A stretch of DNA of 64,000 nucleotides from Octopus sinensis (taxonomy: Eukaryota). The notes beneath the pieces are model-generated. The model was not told the DNA's origin, did not search any database, and saw nothing but the letters and a program-made list of their open reading frames with translations. The stretch is from positions 141,422,001-141,486,000 of the forward strand of contig NC_042998.1 in NCBI RefSeq assembly GCF_006345805.1, written 5' to 3'. Below are positions 4,801 to 55,682 of the stretch, piece by piece; the first letter of the stretch is position 1; the number at the start of each line of letters is the position of its first letter. The position numbers and the translations under genes were made by a program.

Positions 4801-4943
4801 TAAATGATAATATACCCATCTGCATCAATGAAAAACTAATATCTTTTTAATATCTCACTGATACACTGGATAAAACCGGGAACTTTGATGCTAACATCCC
4901 TCTAAGAGGTATTTATATCCTTGCAATAATATATATATATATA

Positions 4944-5499
4944 TATGAGTGCAATGGGTATATTGTCACCATTTTATATTTTTTATTTTGTGTGCACATA
5001 TTTTGTTTTTGATTTTGTTGACTACACAGTATATGAGGATCAGTTGGGCACTGTTTGTGAGAAAAACAGTACTATAACGCAATTCACTCTGCCAGAAATT
5101 TGGAAACGACATGCTGTACTGCTTGGCATACGTGCTGGAAGCTCCAATGCAAAAATATACCAGTAGGAACATTACCTAGAGTGGTGAAAATTAAACATCC
5201 AGTCAACATCATGGTGTTTGGAGTCATCACTAGTGATAGCGATGATATGCCTCCATTCATCTTCCCACACAGCCTCAGACTCTACATGGGGGCCTACAGC
5301 AAGTGCCTGGAGAAGGTAGTACTCTCCTGGGTCAAGAGGGTGGCTGTTGGAAGACCCTATGTCTGGCAACAGGACTCTGTACCATGCCACACAAACAGGA
5401 GAACCCAGTCATGGCTATCAGACAATCTCTGTGACCACATCACCCAAAACATCTGGCCACTTAACTCCCCAGACTTCAAACCCCTTGATTATTATTTGT
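4944..5499 (+). mobile_element. maT-type (DD37D) Tc1/mariner remnant, internally deleted and 3'-truncated
   Basis: Translation ..VWQQDSVPCH..WPLNSPDFKPLDY has 37 residues between the 2nd and 3rd catalytic Asp; same family as 23591-24427. Confidence 0.85.
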
Positions 5500-22768: not shown

Positions 22769-23590
22769 GTGTGGACAATGCATGATTAATTTGAAAACAA
22801 TGGGAATACAAGAGTATTATTTTGACAGAATTATATGAATGCTAAAGGGTTAAAATATCTGTATTTTGAGAATGAAGCAAAAGTAGATAATTATATCTAA
22901 ACCTTACATAAGAAAAGTTTTTAAAAAATGAAAAGGAAAATGCTGTATACAAAGCAGGTTAAGTGTGTCTATGCAGAAATAGGCAGACATGGCTGTGTGG
23001 GTTTGATTTCCACCCTATTGTGTGGCACCTTGGGCAAACATCTTTAATTACAAGAAGTCTTTCATATATATGTATCTATTGTGTGTGTGTGTGCGTGTGC
23101 TTTCAATTACACTTCTCCAAAACTCACTGATCTCCAATCAGTGCATTTGTTGTCATTTCCCCTGTCAACAAATTAATTGTCTGCTGGTTTTGTGCCTTGC
23201 AAAGACATGGGATAAGAAATCTCTTACTTGAAAATGTAAAAACAAGTCAAGTTTAGTGACAGGAAGGGCATCCTGGTGTTGTCTGTTTCCAGTATTCAAA
23301 AGTCTGGCCCACAAGAAAATATTAGCTTACATGGAAACAAGTTAGGGGAAGCAACATGAAGGGCATTCAATTGTAGAAAATCTGTAATGATGACACACAC
23401 ACACACACACACACAGAGGTATACATAGACATGTATACATATATGTATATACATCTATCTAATCCAAACTAGCTGAGAAAAACAAACATGAAAATGAAGA
23501 AAGACCAACAGACAAAAGAGGAGACATATCAATAGAAATAAAACTCCAGCTTGGCCACAGTCAACAAATTACAACAAATACATGGATATA

Positions 23591-24427
23591 CAGGGTGTGA
23601 TAGGTACATTGCCACCATTTTATACTTTTAATTTCGCACATACGCATTGTTTGTTTTTGATTTTGTCAACTATACAGTATAGTAGGGTCAGTTGGGCAGC
23701 GTCTGTGAGAAAAACAGTACCATGATGCGATTCACTCTGCCAGAAATTTGGAAATGACATGCTGTACTGCTTGGTATTTGTGCCAGAAGTTCCAGTAGGA
23801 ACATGTACTGAGAGTGATAAAAATCAAACATCTAATCAACATCATGGTGTTTAAAGTGATCACTAGTGATGGCAACATTATACCTGCATTCACCTTACCA
23901 CATGGCCTCTGACTCAACACGGAGACCTACATCAAGGGCCTGGAGGAGGTAGTGTTGCTCTAGGTCAAGAGGGTGACTGCTGGAAGACCCTGTGTCTGGC
24001 AACAGGACTCTGCACCATGCCATGCAAGCAGGAGAACCCAGTCATGGCTGTCAGACAATTTTTATGACCACATCACCCCTAACATCTGGCTACTTAACTC
24101 CCCATACTGCAAGCACCTTGATTAGTATATGTGGGGCGCAGTTGAGTGAGACCAACAAAACTTTTTGCAACATCAAGGATGAACTGAAGGCAACGATTAT
24201 GGCAGCATTCACCAACTTAAATAAAGAGACCATACATAAGAGTTGCAGGAGATGCCGAAGTCATCTGGAGGTTGTGGTTGAAGCCAATGGTGATTTTATT
24301 AAATAAATTTACTCTTTAGTATTTCCAGATATTTTTATGTAATTTTGGTAAATATATCTTAAAATGAGATGTCAGTGTTATTTTAATTTTTGCGTAATTT
24401 AGATGACAATATATTCACCGCATCCTA
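23591..24427 (+). mobile_element. maT-type (DD37D) Tc1/mariner deletion derivative with both ends
   Basis: TA|cagggtgtgataggtacattgccacc ... gatgacaatatattcaccgcatccta|TA decayed TIRs; broken transposase C-terminus (QQDSAPCH..WGAVE..VVEANGDFIK). Confidence 0.85.
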
Positions 24428-26984: not shown

Positions 26985-27190
26985 TACAGGCTACATATAC
27001 ATATATAAGTACATACACATACATAAATATGTATATTTGCATATATATATATTTCCATATACATACATATATATGTACATAAATATATACATTCATATAT
27101 ATATACACACACATATATATACATATATATACACATATATATACATATATACATACATATATATATACATACATATATATATACACACAC

Positions 27191-27221
<31 letters not shown>

Positions 27222-27222
27222 C

Positions 27223-27263
<41 letters not shown>

Positions 27264-27348
27264 CATATACATACATACATATACATACATACATATACAT
27301 ACATACATATACATACATACATATACATACATACATATACATACATAC

Positions 27349-27411
<63 letters not shown>

Positions 27412-27412
27412 C

Positions 27413-27446
<34 letters not shown>

Positions 27447-27480
27447 CTTCATATACATATATATATATACATACACATAT
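26985..27480. repeat. Compound TA/TACA microsatellite
   Basis: Direct reading; source of the spurious YVCIYM ORFs. Confidence 0.95.
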
Positions 27481-27618
27481 AAATTTAAAATAATAAGGGT
27501 GAAAAATTGAATATTAATTTGATTAATATCAATTTAAAACCAGTGGTCTAGCATATAGATAAATCTGACGATTCAGAAAATTATATCACATACATATAAG
27601 AGGGATGATATATATGAC

Positions 27619-27753
27619 CATCTCAGCAGTAATTCCTGATGGACCATGCAAGAACTTCCTTGTCTTCATATCCTTATTGCTTTTATCATCATATTGTTGT
27701 CAACTCAATAACTGGACCCTCTATTGGTGAAAAGAGTTTCACTCCAGGCATAC
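27619..27753 (-). mobile_element. Inverted duplicate of the RTE fragment at 25726-25858
   Basis: catctcagcagtaattcctgatggacca..ggaccctctattg..ctccaggcatac is the reverse complement of 25726-25858. Confidence 0.9.
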
Positions 27754-28299
27754 ATATAAGTGGGATGATATATATGATCACTTAGTGGTCATCCCTCATA
27801 TATGTATGTAATAAATATATATATGTACATATATATATGCATATGTATATACATATATACATACACATATACATACATATGTATATATATATATATACAT
27901 ACATATATATATACACACACATACATACCAATTAGTGCTATTATGTTAGACATGGCCTGGGCCTATACTGGCGGAAACTTATCAAAGTTATATATGCACA
28001 TATATATATATAAACCTATATATATGTACACATATATATAGACATATATATAAATATGTATACATACACATACTTATATGTATACATACATATATGTATA
28101 CATATACATACATATATGTACATACCTTCCATATATATTTATATATACATGCATATACAGGTACAGGACATTAAAAAAAAACATGAACAAATGAGAAACG
28201 AGAACTTAAAAAACAAATTCATAGAAAACGACCATTTTTCGAACAACGAAACAAATAGAGAAACGAGACAGGCAACATAAAGAACATTCCCTTTATATT

Positions 28300-28495
28300 T
28301 ATATATATATATATATACACACACATATATAGACATATATATATATATATACATACACACACACACATATAGACATATATATATATATATACATACACAC
28401 ACACACACACACATATATATACATACACACACACACACACACATATATAGACATATATATATATATATATACATACACACACACACATATAGACA

Positions 28496-28542
<47 letters not shown>

Positions 28543-28787
28543 TATATAGACATATATATATATATATACATACACACACACACATATATAGACATATATA
28601 TATATATATATAATACACACACACACACACATATAGAAGACATATATATATATATATATATATATACATACACACACACACATATAGACATATATATATA
28701 TATATATATATACATACACACACACACACACATATAGACATATATATATATATATATATATATACATACGCACACACACATATAGAC

Positions 28788-28820
<33 letters not shown>

Positions 28821-29010
28821 TATAGACATATATATATATATACACACAACACACATATAGACATATATATATATATATCATACACACACACACCACATAT
28901 AGACATATATATATATATACACCACACACACACACACATATATATATTATATATATATATATATATATACATACAACACACACACATATATATACGTACA
29001 TACACATGCA
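28300..29010. repeat. Higher-order microsatellite: repeated [ATATAGAC (AT)n (AC)n] units
   Basis: More than a dozen recurrences of atagac punctuating alternating (AT)n and (AC)n runs. Confidence 0.9.
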
Positions 29011-29276
29011 CGCATTTATATTTTTTTCTTTTACTCCACCTCAGGTTTTTTTTACCTTTTCATTCTCTTCTGATTAAACCCAAAACCATGTTCGTAGAAA
29101 GCAAACTTTTCAATTCCACAAACACACAAAAAGTACTCAATACACTATGTGAAGTGGCTGGCGTTAGGGAATGTATCCAACCACATGCCAAGGAAGACAC
29201 TGGAGTTGAGCACAGTTTTCTGGCTTGCCAGCCCATGTCAAACTGCCCAACTGACACCAGCGTGGAAAAACAGACA

Positions 29277-45612: not shown

Positions 45613-46943
45613 ATCTTCAGTACGTAAAACGAAATAATTTATTTTAAATCGATACTTAAAAACCTTCACTAATTCATATATAACATAAATATTCAGACGT
45701 TTCATGAAATGGATGTACATCACCGTCAATGAGAAAAAAAGAAAGAAAAGAAAAGAAAGAAAATATCAAATGCAATTAAAAAAAAGTAATAATATCGCAA
45801 GTGATGAATTTTGCTCTACTTTCCCCTCCATCTTCCTTTGCAATGAAGTGTGTGTGTGTTAAAACAGCCATCCACTGCAGCTGTCAATGCACACACATAC
45901 ACACAGAGTCTATGAATACAGAATTGATTGCAATTTAGAAGAGATACAACGAATGAAACGGAGCTGACACATGGATGTTACACAGTGAAGAGGACACAAG
46001 ATGAATAGACAATCGAGTGAAATGGTTTCACTAATGCAATTGAGTGGACAATAAGTGTATGTGTGAGGAATTAGGTAACAACGACATGACTTAACTCTTC
46101 ACAACGACAAATAATTAAATAATTATATCATTTTTGCAGCGACCACCAACGACAAGATGTTAATACCACAATTAAAATTATGTTTAAATCAGACGACTGT
46201 CTTTGAAATTGAAGACGTGAGCTATACTTTAAAAGGTAAGGATGGTGTTTCTGGGTGGATAAATGTTATGGATTTCAAACACAAACTACTTTTCCATCGT
46301 ATTGTGGCGAGACAATCGCTTATCCGTCGAGAACAGGTACTAAATCTTTCAAGAGTGTTACCTGCAAACGTGTTTTATGGTAGCCCCTTAATGTCACAAG
46401 TCATCAACTTACTTCTAAAGCTGAGAACCAATTCGCCTATGTTGACAATGCTCTTAGGAAGTGGTCAGGTTTTATAAACATTCACCTTCATTTATCACAT
46501 CAATGTCAAGTTTCTTTTCAATAATCTATACACACATTTTGTGTGTGTGCGTAGAAATGCAATAGTGGTCAATTAAACCGGATATCAATTCAATCAGAAC
46601 AATTCTATGTCACACAATTCTATGTACACCTAGGCTACGTCAGGTGTTCTGCCGCCATGTGTCTATGTATTCTTTACAGGAAAGAAATTAACAGTGACTT
46701 TGAGATTTTAGCTGTTATCTGTCTATCTAATCTCTTCGATATTATTTATTCACAACCATCGGAACGCGAAGCGCTCCTCACAAACAGAAGTTCGTGAGAT
46801 GGCTGTGATCTGTAAACAGTTTTGAGTAGGAACCGGAAAGAGAAAAATGAAAACGTAATGCGCATGTGCATACCGGATACATAAAACGGAAGATAATAAA
46901 AACGCAATGCACATGTCAAACAAGTTATATGATGGTCTGTAAA

Positions 46944-46974
46944 GGCGGCGAGCTGGCAGAAACGTTAGCACGCC
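46944..46974 (+). mobile_element. 5' piece of a GGCGGCGAG-head SINE, split by the 2.2-kb insertion
   Basis: ggcggcgagctggcagaaacgttagcacgcc; the SINE continues at 49193. Confidence 0.9.
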
Positions 46975-49175
46975 TCCGCTGTTTTTCAAGTTGTACGTGA
47001 GGCAGTTTGACGTTATTTTTCACGGTGTTAACATAATTTATTTTGTGTCTGTGTTTTAAACACTTTGTTAATTGTTTTTGTGCTGCTTTGTAGCAATTTG
47101 TTTGTGCTTTCTCTCCTATTTTGGGGAGAGTTAGCTACGGAGAAAAAGAAGCCTGTTTTTTCAGACCTTGGTGGGTCTAAACTATCGTTGTCAGAAGAAC
47201 TGCTTAGAGCAATAGGAAAAATGGATGAAATAATTAAGAAAGATGAAAAAAAGAAAAGCTTCACGAAAGTGACAAAACAGGAGGAAGAGGAGATTGACAT
47301 CAAGAAAATCAGTAATTTTAAAAATCTGACCTGTAGAGAGGGGTACAATGTGGAGTTGTCCCCTCCAAAGGAAATGTTGGAGGGTGTCAGAGAGAGTAGT
47401 TGCATGCAGGACATTCTCAGCGAAGGCAAGTAGGATTGAAAACGTAAAAACGGCTCAAATAGAAAAGGTACTAAGGCCCATGTGGTGGGATATTATCTTT
47501 GTAAGGTGCAGTGGAGGTGAGGTTCGCAAGGAAGCGGGCGGTGGGGACAGTAGAGGACGGGGTAGTGGTGTTGTTGCCCACTTGTATGGGCAGAAGGGCA
47601 ACTGGGATTGGAGTTGAAGGTATTCCACCGAAGTGGACGTGGCCTGGGTGGCGGCCGCGGTCCTCGAGGGAGGTGAGGACGATGTAGCGGTGCTCCAGGC
47701 CGCGGGATGTGGAGGGGAGAGACACTCGAGATGGCGGTGCAGGCATCGGCGAAAGCCTTGGAGGAGATAGCAGAGATAGTCTTGTTTGATGAGGCAGAGA
47801 TGTGGGGGAGGAAAACAATTACATACAAAACATTTTCAACGAAAGCGGGCAGAATTGAGAATGTAAACTCAAGTCAAATAGAAAAAGTGTTGGGCGGTGA
47901 AGGACAGTTCACTCTAATGGTTAAGTAGTTAGACTTAAGCCAAGTATGAAATTATTATTATGACAAAAAACAAAAAGCAAGCAAGACAAAACAGTCATTT
48001 ATCTAGTAAACCCACTTGTCGTAGAATCTATAATAGATTTTCCAGATTGTGGCACGACATAGCCTTTATAAAGAGAGGAATGAGATTTGGTACAGTAGAG
48101 GTGAGGTTCACGAAAGAACAAAATGTAAAGAAACAGGCAGCGAAGGCAATAAAGGATGAAGAAGTGGTGTTGTTGCCCACTTATATGGACAGACGGGCAA
48201 CAAGGATTAAAGTCGAAGGTATTCCATCCGAAATACACGTGGCCTGGGTAGCGGCCGCAGTCCTTAAAGGAAATGAGGAGGATATAGCAGTGCTCCAGGT
48301 CACGGGAACCAGATGTGAAATGTGGAAAGGAAAGACACTTGAGATGACGGTACAAGCATCAAGGGAAATCTTAGAAAATATAGCAGAAATAATCTCGTTT
48401 GATGAAACGGAAAAGAGGTTCAAGGTGGATGGCAGAGTCCCTAGATGTTATGTGGTCTAAAGGGCCACATTAGAGTGAACTGACCTTCACCGCCAGAAAA
48501 AAAAGTAGAAGAACGGACAAAGAAAACGGAGGAACATGCAGAGATGATAGAAAAAGAAGAGAAAAAAGTACCAGAGGAAGAAACATGGAAAGTGGCAGGC
48601 GGGGGAAACCGAAGAAAGCAAGTGATTTGAACTTTAAATCCCAACCCACACCCACCCTTCCCCACAGACACCGAGACTAACCATTCCTCTCCGACACGAA
48701 AACAAAAAAAGAAACACACACACTAGAACTCTCAAACTCCCCCTCCCAGACAAAAAAGAAATGTGTAGTAGTGATGATTGATGATTCGAACGAGAACTAC
48801 CGGAATGGGACGATTTTAAGGCAGTGGAAAATTCATGAGTTTGACAATGTCAAGAGGTGACACCGTTGTGTGTTACCGACGGAGGAACAGATGGAGAGTG
48901 TTGAAACAAAAGTGGATATGGGTCGTAGGAGGTGAAGTTGAACAGAAAGGAACTACCGGAAGTTTTGACTTTCGGGATAGACATACTAGAAGGAACGGGG
49001 TATAAAAGGTGGTAAAGGGTAGAAATGGGGTCGCTCGGAGATGGGGCTGAGTGGTCCCATTCAATTTTCTCGTTTTCATATTTATCATTCATCTTTGTCA
49101 TACATTTGTTTTTTTTTATTCGTTTTGTGTCCCCACATGTGATGTGTTGTCCCGTTGGTGGGCAATAATGTATTA
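46975..49175 (+). mobile_element. ORF1-only (HAL1-like) L1/Tx1-type non-autonomous retroelement with 17-bp TSD
   Basis: TSD agaaacgttagcacgcc (46958-46974) / agaaatgttagcacgcc (49176-49192); broken ORF1 with K/E-rich N-terminus, RRM-like region (GTVEVRF..LLPTYM..RIKVEGIP) and CCHC knuckle C(Y)xCGLKGHIRVN(C) at ~48446-48483; no RT or endonuclease seen. Confidence 0.85.
47131..49015 (+). pseudogene. Disrupted, internally duplicated gag-like ORF1
   Basis: ORF-track pieces 47065-47433, 47348-47617, 47707-47928 and 47960-48460 are homologous or consecutive parts; frameshifts and a TGA at the last knuckle Cys. Confidence 0.75.
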
Positions 49176-49428
49176 AGAAATGTTAGCACGCCGGGCGAAA
49201 TGCTTAGCGGTATTTCGTCTGCCGCTACGTTCTGAGTTCAAATTCCGCCGAGGTTGACTTTGCCTTTCATCCTTTCGGGGTCGATTAAATAAGTACCAGT
49301 TACGCACTGGGGTCGATATAATCGACTTAATCCGTTTGTCTGTCCTTGTTTGTCCTCTCTGTGTTTAGCCCCTTGAGTGTAGTAAAGAAATAGGTATTTC
49401 GTCTGTCTTTACGTTCTGTGTTCAAATT
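49176..49428 (+). mobile_element. Remainder of the interrupted SINE with an alternative 3' tail, followed by a second partial SINE head
   Basis: gggcgaaatgcttagcggtatttcgtctgcc..gtcgatataatcgacttaatccgtttgtc..gtaaagaaata then ggtatttcgtctgtctttacgttctgtgttcaaattc. Confidence 0.9.
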
Positions 49429-49429
49429 C

Positions 49430-50229
49430 GTATATGTATCTCTCTCACGCATGCTGCTCCCTTCTCTCTTGATATGACCGACGTATTGCAATATCAAGAG
49501 CGTCTGTCTAGCTCTGTGTAAATTATTTACATGCCTGTTTGACCGTTTCACGTGACTTTATTCATTGAAACTTCTTGCAAATTCCGTCGTTGTAATGTTT
49601 TGCTTTCCTTTTGTTTCAAACTTCCTCGTAGTAAATGTTTTTGCTTTCATTTTGTGATGGACAGCTATCACGCAAAAAATGCTAGTTTCCAAATCTTTGT
49701 TTTCTGATTGAGTAAAAATGATCAAACTTTAAACCTCTGTAATATTTTTCTAAACTTTTCTGGAATAAATGAATCACAAAATCGGATTTAGCGTGAAAAA
49801 TTACATTAATATAGAAAATTTGAAAATGTTCATTTAATTTTAAAATTTTCAAAATCTGTGACAATAACGCTTTTCTCATTGTAAACTTTCCTTTTCTCTC
49901 TATTTACCACACTCTCTCTCAATCTTCCTCTGTATATGTATGTCGCTCATGCTGAGTGTGTGTGAGGAATTGCATTAGGGCGATAGTAGAAACAGCTTCG
50001 CAAAGCAGCAGCTGCGTATTAAGAAAAATCTTTACATTTATGCGCACCAAATAGAAAAACAAAAACTTTGTTTATCGAGACACAGATTAGCCCCAGATAA
50101 TGTAAAGATCCCTCCCGATGAAGAAGCCTATCCATCGCAGAAGACATGTTTAACATGGAATAAGCGAAATATTGAAATAAAGGCATTCTATTTTGAAAAT
50201 TATCTGGCAACGACGGGCTACTCGGCTAG
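49430..50229 (+). mobile_element. Non-autonomous Helitron-like element (3' end supported, 5' end approximate)
   Basis: Ends gcaacgacgggctactcggCTAG|T, a subterminal hairpin plus CTAG before T. Confidence 0.55.
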
Positions 50230-54027: not shown

Positions 54028-54597
54028 CAGCGGGCAAAAAAAGAGAACGATTAATATTTTTTTTAATGTCGGAAAAGCTAGTGAACGTACAAATTCGTAA
54101 TTGGTTTCGTAAATACAGTTAACCATAAGCTAAATTCTCTGAAAAATCTAAGTTTGTACAATGGACTTAATAATAAAAGTTAATAAGTCTAACACTAATT
54201 TCGTGCAAATGTCTCATGTGCAAAATAAGAGAACGATTAGATTCCTTCAGAAATTTCTGAAGATTTCAAACATTGTTTACATTTGCAGGCTCAACGTTAC
54301 TACCATCTCAGTATTGTGCTAGCTTCCGAATATGGCATACCACGCTAAAGTTACTCTCGACTTCAGAAAAGAAATTGTAAGGATGAAAGTTTCAGGAATG
54401 ACTCTCTCGGCTATTTCACGAAACGTAAGGAGATTTAAGAGTGTAGTTTCACGTGTTCTTAAGCTCTATGAAAAGACCAAAGGTTTTGAACCGAAAAAAG
54501 CAACTGGTAGACCACGCAAAACCACCATGCGAAATGATCGAGCCATGAAACGGTACATATTGAAGGATCCTTTCGAAGCTGCGGCTGGAATTTCTAA
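54028..54597 (+). mobile_element. Tc1-like transposon 5' fragment (IR/DR-type left end and paired-like DNA-binding domain)
   Basis: ORF 54332: MAYHAKVTLDFRKEIV..GMTLSAISRNV..VSRVLK..GRPRKTT..DR..KDPF; direct repeats caaaa(a/t)aagagaacgatta at 54035 and 54221. Confidence 0.85.
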
Positions 54598-55682
54598 TTT
54601 AGAACTGCTAAACATTATTATTGCACTTCCTTGATTTGAATGTTAAACATTAAAGACTTCATTCATACATCTCTATACATACATACTTTTTTGAATGCCC
54701 ATTACTCCGATAATTCTGCAGTTTTACAGTTACACTTTTTCCATGACAGTAGATAATTTTTTTATTCCACAACGTATTTGTAGTGGCTTCATGCAGGCAT
54801 AGCGTGGATTCGATCCTCGATTGCCAGATTTCACTTAAAACTGCAACAGCGCTTTTCTCATGGTAAAACAATAGTTTTTCTATGAATGACAGCAGTTATA
54901 TATTTCCCGGGTGCCTTCGCTAAGTAGAATAATGTCTTTGCCTCTTGCCAACCTCAGGCAACCTCTCTCGCCAACTTCCAACAATCTCTCCCTCCTCCAG
55001 CTGACAGTTTTTTGTACTCTTTTCGTGACAGAAAATACATCTTTTGTGGTAGTTATAACGAAATTGCCTTCTTATATCAGAGTAATAAGGCGTTTCAATA
55101 GAACATCTTTACCCCGGGAATTACCGTGTACACCAGCTTGTATATATATATATATATATAGCTTATGAAGATATCACATTCAACATACTGAGGAGGCAAG
55201 ATAAAAACATATGTGCACAACAGTGGCAGACAACTCTGCCTCAACATTGCTGGATAACAGGTACTGTCATAAAACATGTCGAACGTGCATAAGACTTATC
55301 AGCCACGAAAGACACTATTTGGGAAGAAGTTGGACGTAAGACACTAAGAAGTTACAGTCCCATGAATGAATGAACGTATAACGGCCTTTTTGATCACTGG
55401 CCAATGATATTGCAGCGACAGTAAATTCTGTGTACACACACACATTAATTCAAATTTACAGAAAACAAAAAACGAAGACAGGTAAGGGAACAACAAACAA
55501 GTGTATTAATTTGACGCTAGGGAAGAATGAAAAAGTCAATGACGTTCGGAGCCTACGTTCTTCGACAGAAAGAGTTGGAAGGTAAAAAAAAATGGATTGA
55601 GAATGGAAAAAACGGAGAGGAGAAATGTGTAGGGGTTAACGGTTCAACCCACACACACACATATTAATTTAATATAAAATCA

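Follow-up and report, generated by a model that had tools for sequence, protein, structure and literature searches.

A-to-I editing of RNA is normally treated as non-heritable. Whether such edits can enter inherited DNA is the question raised by a short segment of a 64,000-nt window of octopus DNA (C2:141422001-141486000 of genome G000, 2.72 Gb; positions below refer to this window), in which one of two neighbouring copies of a retroelement ORF1 segment carries G at many positions where the other carries A. The initial annotation had ascribed this difference to an element transcript that was hyper-edited by ADAR, reverse-transcribed and inserted in the germ line.

The hypermutated tract and its inheritance

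The locus has the following layout, with the type of evidence in brackets:

46944-46974, plus strand: 5' head of an abundant SINE, split by the insertion of the element (sequence comparison)
46958-46973/4, plus strand: left copy of a target-site duplication of 16-17 bp (sequence comparison)
46974-47375, plus strand: 5' UTR and ORF1 start of copy 1, without hypermutation, 4 A>G of 118 (sibling alignment)
47376-47806, plus strand: A>G hypermutated tract of copy 1 covering approximately residues 64-210 of ORF1 in the L012 frame (G at 48 of 145 conserved A; Gs in runs X4, X5, X7 and X11)
47807-47890, plus strand: start of copy 2, adjoining the junction; the sequence of 47389-47470 is repeated here without the A>G changes (alignment)
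47891-48032, plus strand: insertion of ~140 nt inside copy 2 (alignment)
48033-49175, plus strand: remainder of copy 2 with ORF1 core, decayed zinc knuckle, 3' region and 3' tail (sibling alignment; A>G at background level)
49176-49430, plus strand: right copy of the target-site duplication (49176-49192), followed by the rest of the interrupted SINE (sequence comparison)

The hand count on which the initial annotation was based could be reproduced, as the comparison of 47565-47804 with 48164-48418 gave 33 A>G and 2 G>A differences plus 14 of other kinds, with changes at only 2 of 21 A that follow G in comparison to 31 of 58 A that follow T, A, or C. The statement that ORF1 is present twice holds for about 420 nt of ORF1, which are duplicated within one chimeric element, but not for the whole ORF1. 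The open frame that had been assigned to copy 2 spans just 173 codons from stop to stop and is broken by the ~140-nt insertion, and thus is not intact.

The genome contains seven close siblings of copy 2 (71-89% identity), and these served to polarise the changes in a nine-row alignment, in which a state was regarded as ancestral when it was held by at least 75% of at least four other rows. In comparison to the eight other copies, 47376-47806 showed A>G at 48 of 145 conserved A and T>C at 0 of 74, and the remaining changes were G>A (3/112), C>T (4/58), and four transversions. Upstream of the tract, the same copy had only 4 A>G of 118 (46958-47375), the eight other copies had 2-9 of 126-180 in the same segment, and copy 2 had 9 of 177 in the duplicated part (Fisher p = 1e-10 for A>G versus T>C, 2e-10 for tract versus upstream, and 3e-11 for copy 1 versus copy 2). 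At the 48 tract sites, A is the majority state in the eight copies, which means that copy 1 is derived and that the change is A>G, limited to 47382-47793, the first and last changed sites. The avoidance of a 5' G persisted after polarisation (2/37 after G versus 46/105 otherwise, p = 6e-6), whereas a preference for a 3' G was weak in this tract alone (19/45 versus 29/97). The A>G hypermutation of copy 1 is therefore confirmed.

The stretch or a part of it was present in 16 of the 24 runs listed, which stem from 8 studies and carry four organism labels; no RNA run is listed among the 24 as containing it. We examined the Gs in X4, X5, X7, and X11, which carry the three other organism labels and none of which comes from the possible source sample. 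This analysis used Logan contigs and not raw reads; X5 and X7 are presumed to be DNA, and X4 and X11, whose kind is unrecorded, have a DNA-like cover of the flanks and the SINE. In X4, a single contig (47352-48630, 7 other letters) kept 46 of the 48 Gs and had A at 47425 and 47467. All 48 Gs were kept in X5 (one contig, 47220-48266) and in X7 (two overlapping contigs, 47228-48266), and the X11 contig (47602-48266, 3 other letters in 668) covers 19 tract sites. The junction between copy 1 and copy 2 was bridged in all four runs, and the insertion inside copy 2 was also found in these contigs. As the Gs are also present in contigs from four other runs, they are inherited and not due to an assembly error in the window copy, which is the copy that this check covers, and as the junction is found there as well, the insertion and the Gs are older than the separation of these organism labels.

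The element, its insertion, and its chimeric structure

The ORF1 frame of the siblings contains a CCHC zinc knuckle. A homologue search recovered just 2 Octopus bimaculoides proteins among 856 candidates, the ORF1 protein neighbours in the Atlas, CCHC/RRM proteins including ZCCHC3, serve as leads only, and a first look in G000 gave 13,410 candidates for the protein. Four window frames had no significant Pfam match, and the region 46800-49600 had no Rfam match at E<=1, which leaves the SINE head without assignment to a known RNA. Some loci carry, behind this ORF1, an ORF2 that encodes APE endonuclease, RVT_1, and zf-RVT domains. The autonomous relatives L082 (PF03372 and PF00078) and L093 (PF00078 and PF13966) have an ORF1 that is 42-49% identical to the L012 query. 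Since an endonuclease and a reverse transcriptase are encoded behind the same ORF1, the family is a non-LTR retrotransposon and not a virus, and the window element is a 2.2-kb ORF1-only derivative thereof that inserted in a SINE head. Such ORF1-only derivatives are comparable to those of the "HAL1" type.

The insertion marks are those of a non-LTR element. A single target-site duplication of 16-17 bp (46958, 49176) brackets the whole unit of copy 1 and copy 2, and the 3' tail of copy 2 (about 49144-49175) resembles the tails of the SINE and of the autonomous relatives, including L080 and L093, which themselves begin or end in (TC)n. The edited copy L147b (see below) has a poly(A) and a likely target-site duplication. 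The same SINE-head target motif lies beside the siblings C9, C1, C4, C105, and C8, and among 149 copies it was found downstream of 27 and upstream of 19, with 1 and 4 cases on the opposite strand. In the Tx1 clade (Kibi/Koshi, Tx1-Mar), a target preference for (TC)n or other repeats and tails in common with SINEs have been described (PMC4494074). The family resembles these elements in its two-ORF relatives with APE endonuclease, reverse transcriptase, and zinc finger, in its CCHC-type ORF1, in its preference for (TC)n or another repeat as target, and in the 3' tail shared with a SINE (PMC4494074), and it is probably Tx1-like on this basis. It differs from two-ORF Tx1 elements in that the window element has ORF1 only and that its subfamily prefers one SINE-head site.

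A common 3' tail links autonomous LINEs and ORF1-only elements with the highly abundant SINE (window 49144-49430; L037, L149, L080, L093). For its insertions, subfamily A uses a single fixed site in the SINE head (window 46944-46974), at which the SINE itself forms tandem units. These observations suggest that this SINE has a Tx1-like partner. Head-to-tail arrays of a young ~1.75-kb ORF1-only element exist at L085 (G000:C6:70543500-70553000) and at C5:48428891-48436394, and this array element has intact ~490-codon frames without an ORF2.

Copy 2 shares minority states with the siblings C9 and C18 (11, 8, and 5 columns), whereas copy 1 does not. The window element is a chimera, with copy 2 belonging to the C9/C18 sub-lineage and copy 1 to another. 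The tract ends 13 nt before the junction, which has a microhomology of only 2-3 nt. A template switch during one insertion event would be the simplest reading, although the chimera may also have formed by a later deletion between two tandem insertions. The start of the insertion inside copy 2 (47893-47919) is an inverted copy of 48468-48494, with 26 of 27 positions matching.

Elsewhere, the window contains inverted repeats (3953-4232/4523-4801, 88%, 280 bp; 25960-26139/26334-26513, 96%, 180 bp), a 580-bp dispersed repeat pair (4921-5499 and 23569-24132), and long simple-repeat arrays (26990-29020). A 103-codon frame at 54323-54634 (plus strand) presumably resembles the N-terminus of a Tc1-type transposase.

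Further hypermutated copies and their neighbour preferences

The initial annotation had proposed to scan the genome for other copies with clustered A>G changes, and a search among copies of the family yielded six. An all-against-all polarised comparison covered 143 merged loci (701 kb) with 171 ORF1 copies, of which 157 were testable. The highest number of sense-strand A>G changes per 150 columns was bimodal, with the window copy, L139, L108, L105, and L147b at 21-25 and the next copy at 12; the maxima in the 157 copies were 8 for T>C, 10 for G>A, and 8 for C>T. L243 and L244 were added from six nearer relatives of L147b. The six further edited copies belong to three sister subfamilies and have independent sense-strand tracts; their loci in G000 are C2:95.32 Mb, C1:144.77 Mb, C15:40.59 Mb, and C13:40.68, 40.65, and 11.38 Mb. 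As the window copy was chosen beforehand and L243 and L244 were found via an edited query, the less biased frequency is 4/156. The following counts were obtained in subfamily alignments against unedited siblings, with more distant references for subfamily E, and since the tract borders were defined with a score derived from A>G, these rates, including the 41% of all tracts together, are biased upward:

Window copy (subfamily alignment): A>G at 46 of 128 A
L105: A>G at 38 of 115 A
L108: A>G at 84 of 221 A
L139: A>G at 101 of 252 A
L147b: A>G at 63 of 168 A
L243: A>G at 83 of 166 A
L244: A>G at 116 of 250 A

The tracts are 260-860 nt long, with 33-50% of all A changed and only 0-6 T>C in each of the seven. 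They follow the sense strand of the element in 7/7 cases, with the copies lying on both chromosome strands (5 plus, 2 minus), and the depletion of a 5' G was significant in every one of them (p<=3e-4). Borders are sharp, as seen with L105, in which A>G drops from 38/115 to 0/88 inside one continuous copy. All tracts lie within the 5' UTR and ORF1, and the aligned 3' parts of L139, L108, and L105 are at background level.

Two of the seven edited copies lie within ~25 kb in a region of family copies and SINEs in mixed orientation (G000:C13:40.65-40.69 Mb; L147, L228, L243). L142 (1690-1810, 10/42 A in 120 nt; 5'-G test p = 0.08) and L154 (1890-2110, 9/80; p = 0.67) were not counted as edited. 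A weaker sense-strand A>G excess of 10-12 per 150 columns was seen with L187, L029, L237, and L159, and the excess in all six of these copies is possibly due to tracts that are short or only lightly edited.

When the seven tracts were pooled, A>G amounted to 530/1298 (40.8%) in comparison to 360/8516 (4.2%) in 26 unedited siblings. Of the remaining 11 substitution types, none rose notably (A>C 1.1 versus 1.2%, A>T 1.9 versus 2.1%, T>C 2.0 versus 4.6%, the latter corresponding to 14/692 in the tracts). The changed fraction depended on the 5' neighbour in the order U (108/181, 0.60), A (270/492, 0.55), C (87/223, 0.39), and G (65/363, 0.18), and on the 3' neighbour in the order G (0.54), U (0.42), C (0.36), and A (0.35), with a clear preference for a 3' G (about 200/370 versus 330/890, p = 3e-8). 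UAG was the most affected triplet (39/51) and GAA the least affected (17/143). The background A>G changes do not avoid a 5' G (4.2 versus 3.9-5.2%).

These rules are close to those of known ADARs. For human ADAR1 and ADAR2, the 5' preference is U>A>C>G and the 3' preference is first of all for G, and 50-60% of the A in long dsRNA become edited (PMC3113232). Squid editing sites are depleted of 5' G/C and enriched in 3' G (PMC4384741), and in coleoids, repeats are edited in every tissue and ADAR expression is broad (PMC9068888). The 3' order found here, G>U>C~A, does not exactly match that of human ADAR1 or ADAR2 (PMC3113232), and this counts against an ADAR origin. In G000, the ADAR-family deaminase domain PF02137 had 17 matches over the cut-off. 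Long matches with few introns and with stop codons lie at C2502:263721-264758, C8702:808433-808852, and C12622:203099-204138 and are possible processed pseudogenes.

Two other known footprints were looked for. We did not find an APOBEC-type G>A footprint in copy 2 or its siblings, as A is the majority state at the 48 sites and G>A does not exceed 10 per 150 columns in the 157 copies, nor a two-stranded hypermutation restricted to TpA, as ApA was changed at 270/492 and T>C was found at 14/692. Controls from other repeats were free of tracts: none of 95 SINE copies had one (at most 4 A>G and 5 T>C), no one-sided cluster occurred in 2116 windows outside the family, and 0/22 young autonomous or array copies had a tract. 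The missing tracts in the 95 SINE and 22 young copies were counted against the involvement of ADAR.

Origin of the tracts and implications

We consider it very probable that ADAR hyper-edited the element RNA while it was double-stranded, and that reverse transcription fixed the edits in the germ line. This proposal of the initial annotation remains the best reading after polarisation, the search for siblings, and the examination of other runs, and it is strengthened by the recurrence in six copies. In target-primed reverse transcription, the LINE machinery copies from the tail on sense RNA only, and deamination of the cDNA would read as T>C. The change on the sense strand alone thus fits an RNA substrate, and its density, purity, and context point to ADAR acting on a long duplex. 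In the window copy, the tract ends shortly before the junction, beyond which the repeated sequence is free of edits, and this fits editing as a property of the template and not of the locus. An autonomous LINE that has this 3' tail as well would mobilise the ORF1-only Tx1-like RNA in trans. It would be double-stranded over several hundred bases at some germ-line stage, and ADAR would deaminate about a third of the adenosines in the duplex. In the window chimera, the 3' part would then stem from unedited RNA of one sub-lineage and the 5' part from edited RNA of another, joined most simply by the template switch mentioned above.

What could have formed the duplex? When four unedited copies were folded (4/4), there was no helix longer than 14 bp, and the energies were near or only slightly below those of four shuffles each, which counts against an ADAR origin. 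The duplex was thus probably not internal, and the partner would most likely be antisense RNA from another copy. Inverted ORF1 pairs exist at L220 (2152-2623/3431-3902, G000:C3:83.51 Mb, 472 bp at 99%) and L029 (445-666/1586-1807, 222 bp at 96%); neither is linked to a tract, and by their arrangement they could yield a hairpin RNA of the family. A read-through hairpin from the head-to-head pair at L147 was rejected as a source of L147b, as the opposite element has no A>G on that strand and the arms are unlike. In a human cell assay, no editing was detected in more than 2.5 kb of L1 RNA (PMC5224506), and this was counted against an ADAR origin.

Among the alternatives, error-prone synthesis at insertion fares best, but we regard it as improbable. 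Over a long patch, G would have to be placed opposite T, either by the LINE reverse transcriptase when nucleotide pools are skewed or by polymerase eta or iota as a translesion enzyme that makes the second strand. Such synthesis would be strand-specific and tied to insertion as well, the window tract adjoins a rearrangement junction, and polymerase eta favours A after A or T, which are the top 5' contexts here. However, polymerase eta also makes A>C and A>T in bulk, and neither is raised at all in the tracts. Moreover, polymerase error rates lie far below changes at 33-50% of all A in stretches of 260-860 nt, the intermediate position of 5' C and the preference for 3' G are as for ADAR, and the abrupt end of the L105 tract within one continuous copy also speaks against polymerase errors.

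Somewhat less likely still is a deamination of the element DNA during or after insertion, by an unknown adenine deaminase or by ADAR on a DNA:RNA hybrid. In target-primed insertion, it is the antisense cDNA that is single-stranded for a time, for which T>C would be expected on the sense strand, and this is at the low level given above. In addition, 55% of ApA was changed with the other strand untouched, unlike in a two-stranded TpA-only process, and the near-identical copy 2 was spared just a few bases away. The CpGs in the edited copies may be compatible with such a late event, as the new CpGs look little decayed: they look less decayed than those of the siblings (64/238), although new and old CpGs of the same copies did not differ significantly (7/74 versus 9/56, p = 0.29). 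ADAR can also edit DNA in hybrids in vitro (PMC12925331).

It is very unlikely that copy 1 is merely a member of a G-rich subfamily shaped by drift or by selection of an active lineage. No candidate had more than 78% identity to copy 1 (18/18 scored), and with four tracts as queries, no near-identical G-rich sibling was found, the best other hits being at 78%, 74%, 71%, and 77%. Sharp tract borders inside copies are not expected for a subfamily, and neither is the coding pattern in the window copy, as 26 of the 38 scored changes are nonsynonymous and all codon positions are affected (17/45, 8/33, 13/37). L105 and L108 do share 23 Gs in comparison to 13 expected without stratification, but 18-19.6 are expected when context and position are fixed (p = 0.02-0.06), and the two copies have none of their 28 and 22 other derived changes in common. 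Among the three copies of subfamily E, 4-9 of 39-67 other changes are shared and the Gs only in part, and hence these copies may go back to a single source locus, but not to a single edited molecule. Finally, an assembly or sequencing artefact, for example by edited RNA reads used in polishing, is refuted for the window copy by the four other runs that carry the tract or part of it together with the junction, and we consider it negligible overall; the one point in its favour, besides the general possibility, is that the six other edited copies were seen in the assembly only.

Hyper-editing of element RNA by ADAR, followed by reverse transcription, has relatives among known systems. Clustered, pure one-strand A>G changes at 33-50% of A in a repeat, with the 5' order U>A>C>G and a favoured 3' G, are as in the ADAR hyper-editing of long dsRNA (PMC3113232; PMC9068888). 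Those cases are mismatches between RNA and genome, whereas here the Gs are in genomic DNA and are inherited across organism labels. ADAR-type edits that were carried into DNA by reverse transcription, with up to nearly 50% of A changed, are known from the A>G hypermutated Rous-associated virus as well as avian leukosis virus, and similar hypermutation was described for HTLV-2 and STLV-3 (PMC12925331). The avian retroviruses are infectious LTR elements, with an inverted repeat identified in one case (PMC12925331), whereas the octopus copies are non-LTR elements with target-primed insertion, germ-line fixation, repeated events, and no internal hairpin in the folded copies. The effect of ADAR1 on L1 was reported as editing-independent (PMC12925331; PMC5224506). 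Strand-specific hypermutated copies that became fixed and are recognised by comparison with siblings are also characteristic of APOBEC "DNA editing" in genomic LTR retroelements. That footprint differs, as it consists of G>A by cytidine deamination of cDNA, in vertebrates, and only LTR elements were screened (PMC4866542; PMC2873906). The screen required G>A dominance, other cluster types were described as negligible, and 19 invertebrate genomes were at noise level (PMC4866542).

A literature search that covered mostly freely accessible journals yielded no description of ADAR-type tracts for non-LTR copies in genomes, and PMC12548423 and PMC13034634 likewise gave none, although an earlier report may exist. 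The nearest case is an A>G excess in mouse Mtv61, which the authors describe as lacking the ADAR context (PMC12548423).

On this reading, a single repeat family has apparently seen RNA edits return to inherited DNA on at least seven occasions. A more far-reaching view, which we hold only tentatively and consider rather doubtful, is that the octopus germ-line ADAR routinely hyper-edits retrotransposon RNA that is paired with antisense RNA over its 5' half and ORF1, which would leave several percent of the newly inserted copies of these families dead from the start. This would amount to a heritable defence against non-LTR elements that depends on editing and is a counterpart, with A>G, to the footprints of APOBEC, and the tracts would form a datable fossil record of germ-line ADAR activity. 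With regard to restriction, it has to be considered that the edited copies did insert, that the element is non-autonomous, and that unedited siblings also lack descendants. If edited element RNA was indeed the source of the tracts, ADAR meets retrotransposition-competent RNA in the germ line, which would contrast with the view from cell assays that ADAR1 does not edit L1 RNA. Past ADAR activity, its sequence motif, and the formation of dsRNA could then be screened for in any animal from the genome alone, and some repeat subfamilies that appear old or "G-rich" would in fact be single edited insertions.
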